52,843 nucleotides of DNA from a virus (IMGVR_UViG_3300050166_000172:1-52843), one strand, 5' to 3'; counted from the first letter of the stretch, positions 9,052-12,102 are shown. Made by a program: numbers and translations. Notes: generated by a model from the sequence alone, not told the origin.

Positions 9052-9528
9052 ATGGAAACATTAGAAATTAGTAAGGCAAACGCCTTGAAAGCACACAAAG
9101 ATGCAAATACTAAAGGTAAATCACTTTTAGAAAACTTATTTGGAAAAAAATTTTTCTTAAAAGACATAAAAGACAGAATAAGCTGTTTTGATGATGTTTT
9201 AAAAGAAAATGGTACTACAAGAGAAGAATTTGAAAAATCATGTAAAGATTTAGATCCTGACGAAATTGCTTATAAAATGGCAAAATTAGTATGCCTTGTT
9301 TATAATGAAGGTTGGATTCCAGACTGGAATAATAGTAATGAATACAAATATTACCCGTGGTTTGAAATGGGTTCCTCTTCGGGCGTCGGTTTTTCGTACT
9401 ACGGCTGCGATTACTGGCTTTCGGATTCGAGTGTCGGCTCGCGCCTTTGCTTTAAATCTTCTGATTTAGCAAAACACGCTGGTAAACTTTTTGAACAAGA
9501 AATTTATAAACCATTATTCACAATTTAA
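9052..9528 (+). CDS. DGR target protein 1
   Basis: Contains VR1; WIPDW..KYYPWF...VGSRLCF; paralog of next gene. Confidence 0.9.
   Translation: METLEISKANALKAHKDANTKGKSLLENLFGKKFFLKDIKDRISCFDDVLKENGTTREEFEKSCKDLDPDEIAYKMAKLVCLVYNEGWIPDWNNSNEYKYYPWFEMGSSSGVGFSYYGCDYWLSDSSVGSRLCFKSSDLAKHAGKLFEQEIYKPLFTI
9370..9450 (+). repeat. DGR variable repeat VR1
   Basis: 81 bp, 15 mismatches to TR, all at TR adenines. Confidence 0.96.
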
Positions 9529-9540
9529 TATATAAAAATT

Positions 9541-9915
9541 ATGTATACAAAAATTAAAACATTTGAAGATGCTTGTGTTAAAGAAAATCTTGATCCTAAT
9601 ACGGTAATTCCTGATTTTTCATTATTCCCAGAAAAAGATAGACAAGCAATGATTGACCATGCTAAATTGATTATTATAAACAAAGCAATAAATGAAGACT
9701 GGATTCCTGATTGGTTAAATTATAACCAAACTAAATATTACCCGTGGTTTGAAATGGGTTCCTCTTCGGGCGTCGGTTTTTCGTGCGACGACTACGTTGA
9801 CTGGAGTACGAGTTCGAATGTCGGCTCGCGCCTTTGCTTTGAAAGTAGAGAAAAGGCAATTTATGCAGGCAAAACTTTTATAGAGTTGTATAAATCATAC
9901 TTTGTAAAAGAATAA
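9541..9915 (+). CDS. DGR target protein 2
   Basis: Contains VR2; WIPDW..KYYPWF...VGSRLCF. Confidence 0.9.
   Translation: MYTKIKTFEDACVKENLDPNTVIPDFSLFPEKDRQAMIDHAKLIIINKAINEDWIPDWLNYNQTKYYPWFEMGSSSGVGFSCDDYVDWSTSSNVGSRLCFESREKAIYAGKTFIELYKSYFVKE
9757..9837 (+). repeat. DGR variable repeat VR2
   Basis: 81 bp, 12 mismatches to TR, all at TR adenines. Confidence 0.96.
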
Positions 9916-9920
9916 AAAAA

Positions 9921-10110
9921 AAGGTTGTGTGGTGTAGTTGCTGTAGTTCCTCTTCAGGCGTCAGTTTTTCGTACAACGACTACGATAACTGGAATACGAA
10001 TTCGAATGTCAGCTCGCACCTTAGCAAAAAAATAAACACCACAGACCTTGCTTACATAGCAAAAAATAACAATTTTAAAAGGTTCGTTAGTAAATAATTG
10101 AAAACGAACC
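9921..10110 (+). ncRNA. Putative structured DGR template RNA (TR plus pairing flanks)
   Basis: 9921-9935 pairs with 10036-10049 around TR; hairpins at 10048-10062 and 10081-10110. Confidence 0.6.
9945..10025 (+). repeat. DGR template repeat (TR)
   Basis: Intergenic, AAC/AAT-rich copy with 21 adenines, just upstream of RT. Confidence 0.96.
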
Positions 10111-10125
10111 ATTAAAGCAAAGGCA

Positions 10126-11088
10126 ATGAAAAGAATAGGAAATTTATATCAAAAAATAATATCGAAAGAAAATCTTTTAGCTTCAGAACTAAAAGCAAGA
10201 AAAGGTAAGTCATTTCAATATGGTGTTCGTGTTTTTGATAAAAACAAATTGGAACTTATTGATCAACTTTATAATGAATTGAAAAGTAAAAATTTTAAAA
10301 CTTCTCAATACACAACTTTTACTGTTTTTGAACCTAAAGAAAGATTAGTTTTTAGACTTCCATACTTTCCAGACAGAATATTACATCATGCAATTATGAA
10401 TATTATGGAGCCTTTATTTACAAAATGGTTTACAAATGATACCTATAGCTCAATTAAAGGAAAAGGCATTCATAATGCAGCCAATAACTTAAAAAAAGCA
10501 TTAAAAGACAAATTAAATACAAAGTATTGTTTAAAGCTAGACATTGTAAAGTTTTATCCAAACATAAATCACAATGTTTTAAAGCAACAACTTCGAAAAA
10601 AAATCAAGGACCAGGATTTACTTTGGTTATTAGATGAAATTATTGAGAGTGCTGAAGGATTACCAATTGGCAACTATTTAAGTCAATATTTTGCTAACTT
10701 TTATTTAACCAGTTTTGACCACTGGATAAAAGAAGAAAAGCAAATTAAATATTACTTCAGATATGCTGATGATATTGTAATTCTATCACAATCAAAAGAG
10801 CATTTACACCAAGTTTTATCAGATATTAAACTGTATTTAAATGATAATTTAAAACTTCAAATTAAAAATAATTATCAAATATTTCCAGTTAAAGCTCGGG
10901 GAATTGATTTTGTTGGATATGTTTTTTACCATACACACACATTGCTACGAAAATCAATTAAAAAAAGATTTGCAAAAGCAATATCAAAAAAGAAAAATAA
11001 CCAAACAATAGCGGCTTACAATGGTTGGACAAAACATTGTAACGCAAAACACTTACTTAAAAAATTATTACCTAATGAACAATTTTAA
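10126..11088 (+). CDS. DGR reverse transcriptase
   Basis: LKLDIVKFYPNI, GLPIGNYLSQ (DGR-type IGxxxSQ), YFRYADD, GIDFVGY; 320 aa, no maturase/endonuclease domain. Confidence 0.95.
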   Translation: MKRIGNLYQKIISKENLLASELKARKGKSFQYGVRVFDKNKLELIDQLYNELKSKNFKTSQYTTFTVFEPKERLVFRLPYFPDRILHHAIMNIMEPLFTKWFTNDTYSSIKGKGIHNAANNLKKALKDKLNTKYCLKLDIVKFYPNINHNVLKQQLRKKIKDQDLLWLLDEIIESAEGLPIGNYLSQYFANFYLTSFDHWIKEEKQIKYYFRYADDIVILSQSKEHLHQVLSDIKLYLNDNLKLQIKNNYQIFPVKARGIDFVGYVFYHTHTLLRKSIKKRFAKAISKKKNNQTIAAYNGWTKHCNAKHLLKKLLPNEQF

Positions 11089-11371
11089 AGATTTTGATAT
11101 TAAGCCAGTGATAACAAATTTTGTTGGTGAAAAAATTACTACTCAAAAAATACTTGATAAAGAAATTATTGTAATTGACTTCAAAATTTTGCCATCAAAA
11201 TTTGACGGAAAAGGAGATAGATTAGACTTGCAAATTGAGTATAGAGATGAACCAAGAGTTATTTTTACAGGTGGTAAATACCTAATACAAACAATAGAAA
11301 AAGTACCAAAAGATAAGTTTCCATTTAAAACAAAAATAACTAAAAATGGAGAGCATTTGGAATTTACTTAA
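11075..11371 (+). CDS. Small RT-coupled protein, candidate DGR accessory factor
   Basis: ATG at 11075 overlaps RT 3' end by 14 nt; beta-strand-like pattern, FPFKTKI motif. Confidence 0.7.
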   Translation: MNNFKDFDIKPVITNFVGEKITTQKILDKEIIVIDFKILPSKFDGKGDRLDLQIEYRDEPRVIFTGGKYLIQTIEKVPKDKFPFKTKITKNGEHLEFT

Positions 11372-11383
11372 TTTTTTAAAATC

Positions 11384-11824
11384 ATGATTTATAATCCTCA
11401 AAAAGAAATCGACATCAAACGTGCAATTGAAAAACTCAAATACTATATCCAAAAAGGAAGGCCGTTTGAACTGAAACAAATGCAAGTAAAAAAATCAATT
11501 AATCAAAATAGTTACTTCCACGCAATTGTAAGTTGGTTTTCTTTTGAATATGGGGAACCAGCAGATTACGTAAAGCAAGAAATTATTAAAAAAATTGTTT
11601 GCCCAGAAATTTTTAAAACGGAATCGGTAAATAAAATAACCGGTGAAGTTAGAGCCGACTGGAAAAGCTTTGCTGTAATTACAAAAGATGAAACCACATA
11701 TGTAATTAACAAGTTTAGAGATTACTCCAGCAAACAAGCAGGTATCTACTTACCTACTCCAGAAGAAAAAGATTTCTTAAAAGAAATTGAAGTGCAACTA
11801 AAAAATAATCAACAATACTTATGA
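11384..11824 (+). CDS. NinB/Orf-like recombination accessory protein
   Basis: KSINQNSYFH motif resembling NinB family RSxxQN; GIYLP near C-terminus. Confidence 0.55.
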   Translation: MIYNPQKEIDIKRAIEKLKYYIQKGRPFELKQMQVKKSINQNSYFHAIVSWFSFEYGEPADYVKQEIIKKIVCPEIFKTESVNKITGEVRADWKSFAVITKDETTYVINKFRDYSSKQAGIYLPTPEEKDFLKEIEVQLKNNQQYL

Positions 11825-12102
11825 GAAAAGAAACACTAAATGCTAAATTTTATAACCACAAGGAAAATAAAATTGCAAACCAAGAACATTTTGAGAAAAA
11901 CAAAAAAGAGTTCTCAAAACAATGCCAAATCGTTTATGATGCGCTTATGCGTGGCGAACGATTAACAACTACAAAAGCTTTAATTCAATACGGAGTTGGC
12001 GACTTAAGAAGAAGAGTAAAAGACCTTAAAGACATTTGGAACATCCCAGTAAAAGACCAGTATGTACAAGGCAAATTTAAAGAGTATTTTTTAATCAATT
12101 AA
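11821..12102 (+). CDS. Small winged-HTH protein
   Basis: L..GERLT...A..YG..L.RR..DL pattern. Confidence 0.55.
   Translation: MRKETLNAKFYNHKENKIANQEHFEKNKKEFSKQCQIVYDALMRGERLTTTKALIQYGVGDLRRRVKDLKDIWNIPVKDQYVQGKFKEYFLIN

Follow-up and report, generated by a model that had tools for sequence, protein, structure and literature searches.

The cassette and the small gene behind its reverse transcriptase

We analyzed IMGVR_UViG_3300050166_000172:1-52843, a complete provirus record of 52.8 kb (52,843 nt, hereafter the window) whose proteins have Flavobacterium proteins as their named close relatives. The window carries a diversity-generating retroelement (DGR) in which two target genes, a template repeat (TR), a structured spacer and a reverse transcriptase (RT) gene are followed by a small gene that begins inside the 3′ end of the RT gene (Table 1). 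The product of this last gene, hereafter p98, is the subject of this work. We consider p98 to be, with fair probability, a component of the DGR cassette that acts as an OB-fold (oligonucleotide/oligosaccharide-binding fold) accessory subunit for an RT lineage without Avd, the helper protein of the Bordetella phage RT; the lineage is of the type that Wu et al. named Lineage 3. Where the TR and its two variable repeats (VRs) mismatch in alignment, the TR carries A.

Table 1. Coordinates of the DGR features in the window.
Feature	Coordinates	Strand	Description
DGR target gene 1	9052..9528	+	158 amino acids (aa); phrog_11581 2.5e-19; VR1 9371-9450 near C-terminus
DGR target gene 2	9541..9915	+	124 aa; phrog_11581 3.9e-26; VR2 9758-9837 near C-terminus
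Template repeat (TR)	9946..10025	+	85-86% identity to the VRs (repeat family D2, TR/VR alignment)
Structured spacer RNA between TR and RT	10044..10126	+	hairpin 1 10049-10061; hairpin 2 10081-10110; candidate ligand of the RT/OB proteins
DGR reverse transcriptase (RT)	10126..11088	+	320 aa; RVT_1 2.7e-20; phrog_1423 3.6e-123; Avd-less lineage
p98, basic protein with predicted OB fold, proposed DGR accessory subunit	11075..11371	+	98 aa; starts 14 nt inside the RT gene

The initial annotation of this locus had described a 98-aa open reading frame (ORF) overlapping the RT gene by 14 nt, no ORF between the targets, the TR and the RT, and no Avd gene, and each of these descriptions was borne out. 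A longer in-frame start exists at 11021 (ORF 11021-11371, + strand), and the ATG at 11075 gives 98 aa. We took the 98-aa start as the p98 form because the lengths and N-termini of the homologues agree with it: 26 of 29 full-length homologues are exactly 98 aa long, with lengths of 96, 97 and 105 aa in the remaining three, and the set begins with MNNFKDF, MKNFKDF or a near variant. The N-terminal motif FKD(F/L)xI is conserved and specific to the p98 family. The sole ORF listed between the second target and the RT, 9927-10097 (56 aa), was rejected as a gene, since it is nothing but the TR translated in the frame of the VRs. Across the provirus, the profiles of Avd (PF05635), bAvd (PF22296) and HRDC (PF00570) gave no match at E ≤ 1, an Avd encoded by the host and acting in trans being possible, and a Pfam run on eight ORFs around the cassette found none of the three.

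The p98 gene is real and conserved. A profile built from 30 p98 sequences matched 941 representative clusters at E ≤ 1e-3, of which 462 reach E ≤ 1e-10; among the 150 representatives listed, most are 96-105 aa long. p98 also matches phrog_19665, a family with no assigned function, at 1e-7; here its residues 16-95 align to positions 19-102 of the 105-position profile. [quoted passage not shown]

Predicted fold, linkage to the RT gene and spacer RNA

The AlphaFold2 model of p98, computed from the family alignment, has a mean pLDDT (predicted local distance difference test) of 92.4. Its elements follow the order of an OB arrangement (short helix, b1, b2, b3, helix, b4, b5), and DSSP assigned five strands and two short helices, with E30-40, E48-56, E59-65, H68-74, E84-91 and E94-97. 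An exhaustive VIA-align search with p98 residues 24-98 matched almost solely OB-fold nucleic-acid binders. The top match was RuvBL2 domain II (Z 6.7, rmsd 3.1, 69 aligned residues), bacterial and mitochondrial SSBs scored Z 5.0-5.8, and PriB, editosome OB proteins, the PRD1 SSB P12 and Teb1 were also found. The model thus supports an OB-like barrel at the level of fold, in keeping with the beta-rich, OB-fold-like protein that had been proposed from the sequence.

Structural comparison with viral protein models pointed to RTs as well as to SSBs. In BFVD, the p98 model is matched best by two viral RT proteins (E 9.6e-8, TMq 0.79; E 1.1e-5), followed by a weak match to the RT of the crAss-like phage cr7_1 (E 3.4e-3); several phage models named "ssDNA binding protein" match at E 9e-3 to 4e-2. 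In the Atlas, 44% of the members of one look-alike cluster (score 0.92) carry the label Phi29_Phage_SSB. A complex prediction for the RT (alignment of 49 rows) with p98 (30 rows), run without controls, scored 0.00 against a mark of 0.32 and speaks neither for nor against binding.

We collected 141 loci with p98 relatives at 31-91% identity, of which species genomes supplied 61 and viral contigs 80. A locus was counted as evaluable if its sequence extends 1000 nt or more upstream of the p98 gene (131/141), and in all 131 of them an RT gene lies immediately upstream on the same strand. In 123 of the 131, the spacing between the two genes runs from a 59-nt overlap to a 252-nt gap, and one locus has a 341-nt gap; the exact 14-nt overlap seen in the window recurs in 75 loci and a 4-nt overlap in 16. 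Seven loci have longer overlaps (L048, L054, L078, L079, L007, L028 and L076), in which the RT frame lacks its usual stop and continues for 20-90 codons, out of frame, over the start of the OB gene. Ten loci were not evaluable: five have a partial RT at a contig edge, four (L046, L049, L059 and L070) have too little sequence upstream, and in L061 the RT is present and the p98 match falls below the tblastn cut-off. One virus record with Methanosarcinales as its stated host encodes a 95-aa homologue that overlaps the RT gene by 8 nt. Wu's entry t120 lies on the same contig as one of our loci (L016, Galbibacter marinus).

The gene on the other side of p98 varies. Over 124 loci, the first downstream genes fall into 83 sequence clusters, the largest of which, NinB-like as in the window, accounts for 7 loci. 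An invariant RT upstream (131/131) and so many kinds of downstream neighbor indicate that the p98 gene is part of the DGR cassette and not of the adjoining phage module.

The spacer between TR and RT encodes a conserved structured RNA. Its two hairpins are kept in 37 loci, in which 96.6% of alignment cells pair; sliding the partners lowers this to 31-43%. Both sides have changed in 103 cells, where shuffling gives 22.9, and compensatory changes occur in 10 of the 12 pairs. Rfam model RT-17 (RF03020) aligned to the spacer over its full length (1-95) at 33.3 bits and E 7.5e-5, which is below its gathering score of 40.4. Hairpin 2 contains conserved unpaired GGTA...GAA motifs, and a conserved AAAGCAAAGG precedes the RT start.

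RT fusions, the upstream gene PAG1 and the RT tree

Wu et al. (2018) reported C-terminal extensions without an assignment, up to ~150 aa long, on ~20% of DGR RTs (PMC5758913). We found that the OB module also occurs as such an extension, in several lineages. Among the 150 representatives listed, P0154 (420 aa) and P0167 (411 aa) are each a complete RT whose frame runs on into the OB module, and the fragment P0055 is of this RT-OB kind too. Bacteroidales loci gave three more fusions, in frames of 460 aa (L148), 446 aa (L163) and 433 aa (L161, hhalign E 2.6e-5). The RT of Hankyphage p00 (434 aa) carries the module at residues 328-423, where it is matched by the p98 hidden Markov model (HMM) at 3.6e-13 and by the PAG1 HMM, described below, at 1.1e-12; hhalign gave 98.3% and 97.2% for the two, respectively. 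The ORFs flanking the Hankyphage RT have no Avd match. Its describers pointed to "a small ORF" that resembles Avd in isoelectric point (pI) and molecular weight (PMC6199706), and the Hankyphage DGR is reported to be active in culture (PMC12135933).

PAG1 was described by Wu et al. in three Lineage 3 DGRs (Alistipes putredinis, Bacteroides coprocola and Alistipes shahii) as a gene between target and TR, of a significance they called "tenuous" (PMC5758913). We located an A. shahii-type PAG1 at L156:886-1254, which by eye has one inserted residue relative to Wu's A. shahii entry. On profile comparison, PAG1 is homologous to p98: hhalign of 165 p98-type against 106 PAG1-type sequences gave 87.8% and E 3.3e-6 over 93 columns, the p98 HMM matches the L156 PAG1 at 8e-5, and two further genes match both HMMs (L158:2471-2782 at 2.4e-17 and 7.9e-14, and L159). 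The AlphaFold2 model of PAG1 (core pLDDT about 86-90, overall 75, with the N-terminal ~30 residues poorly modelled) repeats the element order and the OB look-alikes of p98. The PAG1 family comprises more than 400 clusters at 90% identity and, like p98, found no match in NCBIfam. The pI is 8.8 for p98, with a median of 9.0 in both subfamilies.

PAG1 and p98 thus share a predicted topology, and both accompany Lineage-3-type RTs without avd. They differ in that PAG1 is 115-122 aa long and is encoded between target and TR, whereas the window p98 lies downstream of the RT and overlaps it; the sections of Wu et al. consulted here give PAG1 no fold and no link to the RT C-terminal extensions (PMC5758913). 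A second case of upstream placement is L194, where an OB gene of the p98 subfamily (156-452, HMM 3.4e-23) precedes the RT (738-1793) in the place of PAG1 and looks like an independent change of position. Taken together, the PAG1 and L194 placements indicate that the OB gene has moved more than once. We also noted a 233-aa representative, P0132, in which the OB module is tandemly duplicated behind an acidic N-terminal region; its nearest relatives on viral contigs, L193 and L194, are single-copy and adjoin RTs.

We also examined a sample of 401 Bacteroidales genomes. The p98 profile matched 10 of them, and 8 of the 10 matches adjoin or are fused to an RT. A search for RTs gave matches in 50 genomes, and the best 30 of these 50 were used as loci. 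The OB module is present in 12 of the 30 (11 by OB HMMs and L161 by hhalign). Pfam was run on 107 of the 173 ORFs of at least 85 aa in these loci, leaving out L152-L155 and most ORFs inside the RT gene. Among the submitted ORFs, HRDC was found in 15 loci and bAvd in 4, together covering 16 of 17 OB-less loci with RTs of 34-41% identity, and in none of the 30 loci did the OB module occur together with HRDC or bAvd. The ORFs submitted from L156-L163 and L176, a set made up of 8 of the 12 OB-linked loci and L160, gave neither HRDC nor bAvd. Two loci, L160 and L165, have neither the OB module nor HRDC/bAvd. PF05635 itself occurs in 315 of the 401 genomes, mostly in many copies; the accessories of the RT loci were taken from the Pfam run on their ORFs.

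A quick maximum-likelihood tree of 67 RTs agrees with this separation. The HRDC/bAvd RTs form one clade (SH-aLRT 97) that contains no OB-linked RT and does not include the window RT. The OB-linked RTs fall into a group of 46 rows (support 94, below the star) and one separate pair. PAG1 forms are nested among the downstream forms, fused forms branch earlier, and fused and split forms interleave.

A second gene behind the RT appeared conserved by eye in Bacteroidales-type members, namely in Hankyphage (where it matches DUF4376 at 9.7e-7), Alistipes-type loci, Versailles and cr55_1 (L183:3291-3776, L156:2489-2896, L160:975-1403 on the − strand, L188:3525-3953 and L185:3726-4061). It carries the motif G.G.(F/W).YN(H/Y)NI.EV, is absent from the window and may be the acidic CH1 of Wu et al. 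CH1, like p98, is an accessory candidate, reported as limited to avd-less Lineage 3a DGRs. We rejected an identity of p98 with CH1, which is 160-169 aa long with an acidic pI of 4.7, compared with 98 aa and pI 8.8; the two are set apart by description and not by sequence.

Proposed role of p98 and competing explanations

Avd is a helical bundle, whereas p98 is modelled as a beta barrel of five strands and two short helices. p98 has no sequence match to PF05635 or PF22296. The usual place of its gene is downstream of the RT, with an overlap, and fusion to the RT is frequent. In some respects the two are alike. Both Avd (bbp7 of BPP-1) and p98 are small basic proteins encoded in the DGR cassette near TR and RT, and PAG1-type homologues sit exactly in Avd's slot between target and TR. 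Avd has been described as a pentameric, barrel-shaped protein. In Bordetella phage, bRT, Avd and the DGR RNA are reported to be necessary and sufficient for cDNA synthesis, and an RNA segment downstream of the TR binds Avd and confers processivity (PMC6182149); the spacer RNA described above occupies the same place here. According to a preprint, stem-loops lie downstream of the TR in 207 of 278 Avd-bearing DGRs. The HRDC and bAvd accessories resemble p98 as small presumed nucleic-acid binders encoded beside a DGR RT, but they belong to other families and another RT clade and never accompany the OB module in the 30 loci; the HRDC domain (PF00570) was not found in p98. In BPP-1, bbp4 (L192:2462-2710, 82 aa) overlaps the 3′ end of brt by 20 nt, and as a candidate OB counterpart it was discarded, having no OB HMM match.

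p98 can also be set beside known OB-fold binders of single-stranded nucleic acid (SSB/PriB, PRD1 P12, phi29-type SSBs and Teb1), which its modelled barrel (residues 24-98) resembles at Z 4.2-5.8 and an rmsd of 2.3-3.4. It differs from them in lacking a sequence-family match, in its middling Z and in having its own FKD(F/L)xI motif. Teb1, by its title a telomerase processivity factor, is an OB protein that works with an RT, and we cite it as an analogy.

On this basis we hypothesize that p98 is translated together with the RT via the conserved short overlap and that it would associate with the RT, doing so in trans in the window and in cis in the fused forms. The OB barrel may hold single-stranded nucleic acid, the likeliest ligand being the structured spacer RNA, the nascent cDNA or both. 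In doing so, p98 would give the RT template specificity and processivity, which is the job of Avd for the Bordetella phage RT. What the analysis shows is a conserved gene, its predicted fold, its strict synteny with and fusions to the RT, its separation from the HRDC/bAvd loci and the conserved spacer RNA; we infer that p98 would bind the RT and a nucleic acid, that mutagenesis would require it and that it would stand in for Avd.

The initial annotation had suggested p98 as a candidate alternative accessory factor, and the suggestion gains support from the constant upstream RT, the fusions and the lack of any overlap with HRDC/bAvd in the loci examined. It had also named an outcome that would speak against the suggestion, namely homologues mostly without an RT. 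We observed the opposite, both in the evaluable loci and among distant homologues that lie beside or are fused to RTs. The other option in that annotation, an RT that needs no helper, may hold instead, since some RTs of the same lineage are without a detectable module.

Judging from sequence comparison and modelling, this DGR probably works with a helper protein of another class. Surveys report no accessory gene in roughly one in four DGRs, nor in any of Lineage 3, and an absence of avd from Lineage 3 (PMC5758913), and they took this absence to imply an unknown, Avd-independent mechanism. In the main text of Roux 2021, the words "Avd" and "accessory" do not occur. Our literature search did not extend to bioRxiv supplements or to that of Macadangdang et al.; within it, no paper names an OB-fold accessory for DGRs, and neither "OB-fold" nor "OB fold" occurs in a DGR paper. 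In the same search, PAG1 was linked to DGRs in Wu 2018 alone, and no paper tied together PAG1, the post-RT gene and the RT extensions. One protein family now joins the post-RT gene, Wu's unconfirmed PAG1 and unassigned RT C-terminal extensions such as that of Hankyphage. The avd-less lineage includes abundant gut phages. An OB helper may also matter for DGR-based mutagenesis tools, which are described as reliant at present on bRT-Avd, and the idea is directly testable in Hankyphage lysogens, in which DGR activity has already been reported (PMC12135933).

A broader version of the proposal, which we put forward only tentatively and with less confidence than the role of p98 itself, is that the OB module is the general substitute for Avd throughout the avd-less DGR lineage, including Hankyphage and probably the crAss-like phages. 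It would come in three forms, two of them separate genes (after the RT or before the TR) and one a C-terminal domain of the RT itself, and would form, with the RT and an RT-17-like spacer RNA, a ribonucleoprotein built unlike bRT-Avd. If true, template-specific mutagenic reverse transcription would have been solved a second time, independently, and the fused forms would be single-polypeptide DGR enzymes.

The strongest competing explanation, which we nevertheless regard as unlikely, is that p98 acts after cDNA synthesis in the manner of an SSB, coating and protecting the single-stranded cDNA or handing it to the VR during retrohoming, and is not an Avd-like cofactor of polymerization. The nearest solved folds are indeed ssDNA binders (SSB, Rim1, PriB and PRD1 P12), the BFVD and Atlas look-alikes named as phage SSBs point the same way, and the step of cDNA integration is described as not yet elucidated (PMC12135933). 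Repeated fusion to the C-terminus of the RT, however, suits a polymerase subunit better than a stoichiometric coat, and neither Pfam nor NCBIfam places p98 in an SSB family. The SSB-like role and that of an RT cofactor are compatible with each other.

Two other explanations are less likely than an SSB-like role. p98 could be an RT C-terminal domain that has become detached and serves only a structural function, for example in stabilizing the thumb, with no nucleic-acid binding of its own, so that the RT would in effect be Avd-independent. The interleaving of fused and split forms on the RT tree and the unassigned extensions on ~20% of DGR RTs would fit such an origin, but placement of the gene upstream of the TR (PAG1 and L194) suits an independent subunit, and the family is basic with the predicted fold of nucleic-acid binders; we judge this explanation improbable. 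Most improbable is that p98 is an unrelated, hitch-hiking phage gene, such as a replication or recombination SSB of a NinB module: it does lie between the RT and a NinB/Orf-like gene in the window, and Wu et al. cautioned that genes common to few DGRs may be phage genes (PMC5758913), but the constant RT, the 83 clusters of downstream neighbors, the RT fusions, the upstream position and the spread over distant hosts all speak against chance adjacency.

Several observations weigh against p98 as an OB-fold accessory subunit of this RT lineage. Genomic context is known for the homologues reached by pattern scans and samples, and most of the 941 clusters are unplaced. One 3.9-kb contig of a metagenome-assembled genome (L049:1-1134) has two targets, a 210-nt gap and the OB gene with no RT, which could reflect a decayed cassette or an assembly artefact. 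The two weakest Bacteroidales matches (E 1e-3 and 6e-3, in frames of 447 and 386 aa) are not beside an RT. At the level of structure, the VIA-align Z scores are middling (about 4-6.7, best 6.7), and by the tool's own note a Z below 8 may mean a mere common arrangement; Foldseek of the p98 model against the PDB gave no match at E ≤ 1e-3. p98 is only mildly basic, with 18 K+R and 16 D+E. Inside the 46-row group of the tree, the RTs of Perkons, vir215, L160, Versailles and cr130_1 have no significant match to the module. In hhalign, the C-terminal extensions of the crAss LMMB and cr55_1 RTs (89 and 84 aa) reach significance against neither the p98 nor the PAG1 profile (E 0.14-0.24 and 0.003, respectively) and are kept as unassigned, and cr60_1, whose annotated RT of 341 aa is followed by a holin gene, has no HMM match. 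Finally, a search for expression gave only assembled contigs of relatives, none of them over 11100-11500.

Two of these points come with observations of their own. One run labelled metatranscriptomic contains pieces of a relative's RT and of its RT/p98 junction, which is not evidence of transcription. By eye, the extensions of the LMMB RT (L184:2501-3796, 431 aa) and the cr55_1 RT (L185:2417-3742, 441 aa) look OB-like (FP.NFKIT and an FP..F.IT-like motif); the paper on crAss LMMB describes that cassette as having no accessory gene.

Directly after p98, the window (11384-12102) encodes a NinB/Orf-like recombination mediator (phrog_72, 7.4e-13), then a winged-helix HTH_39 protein (8.3e-5). These neighbors place the DGR in an early or replication-type region here and not among tail genes. 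At 11087, contigs of close relatives from two sequencing runs match the RT to its last bases and then diverge; translated by eye, the diverged part is another allele of the N-terminus of the OB protein (ELGIKPEL...), which suggests that the RT/p98 junction is a recombination boundary.

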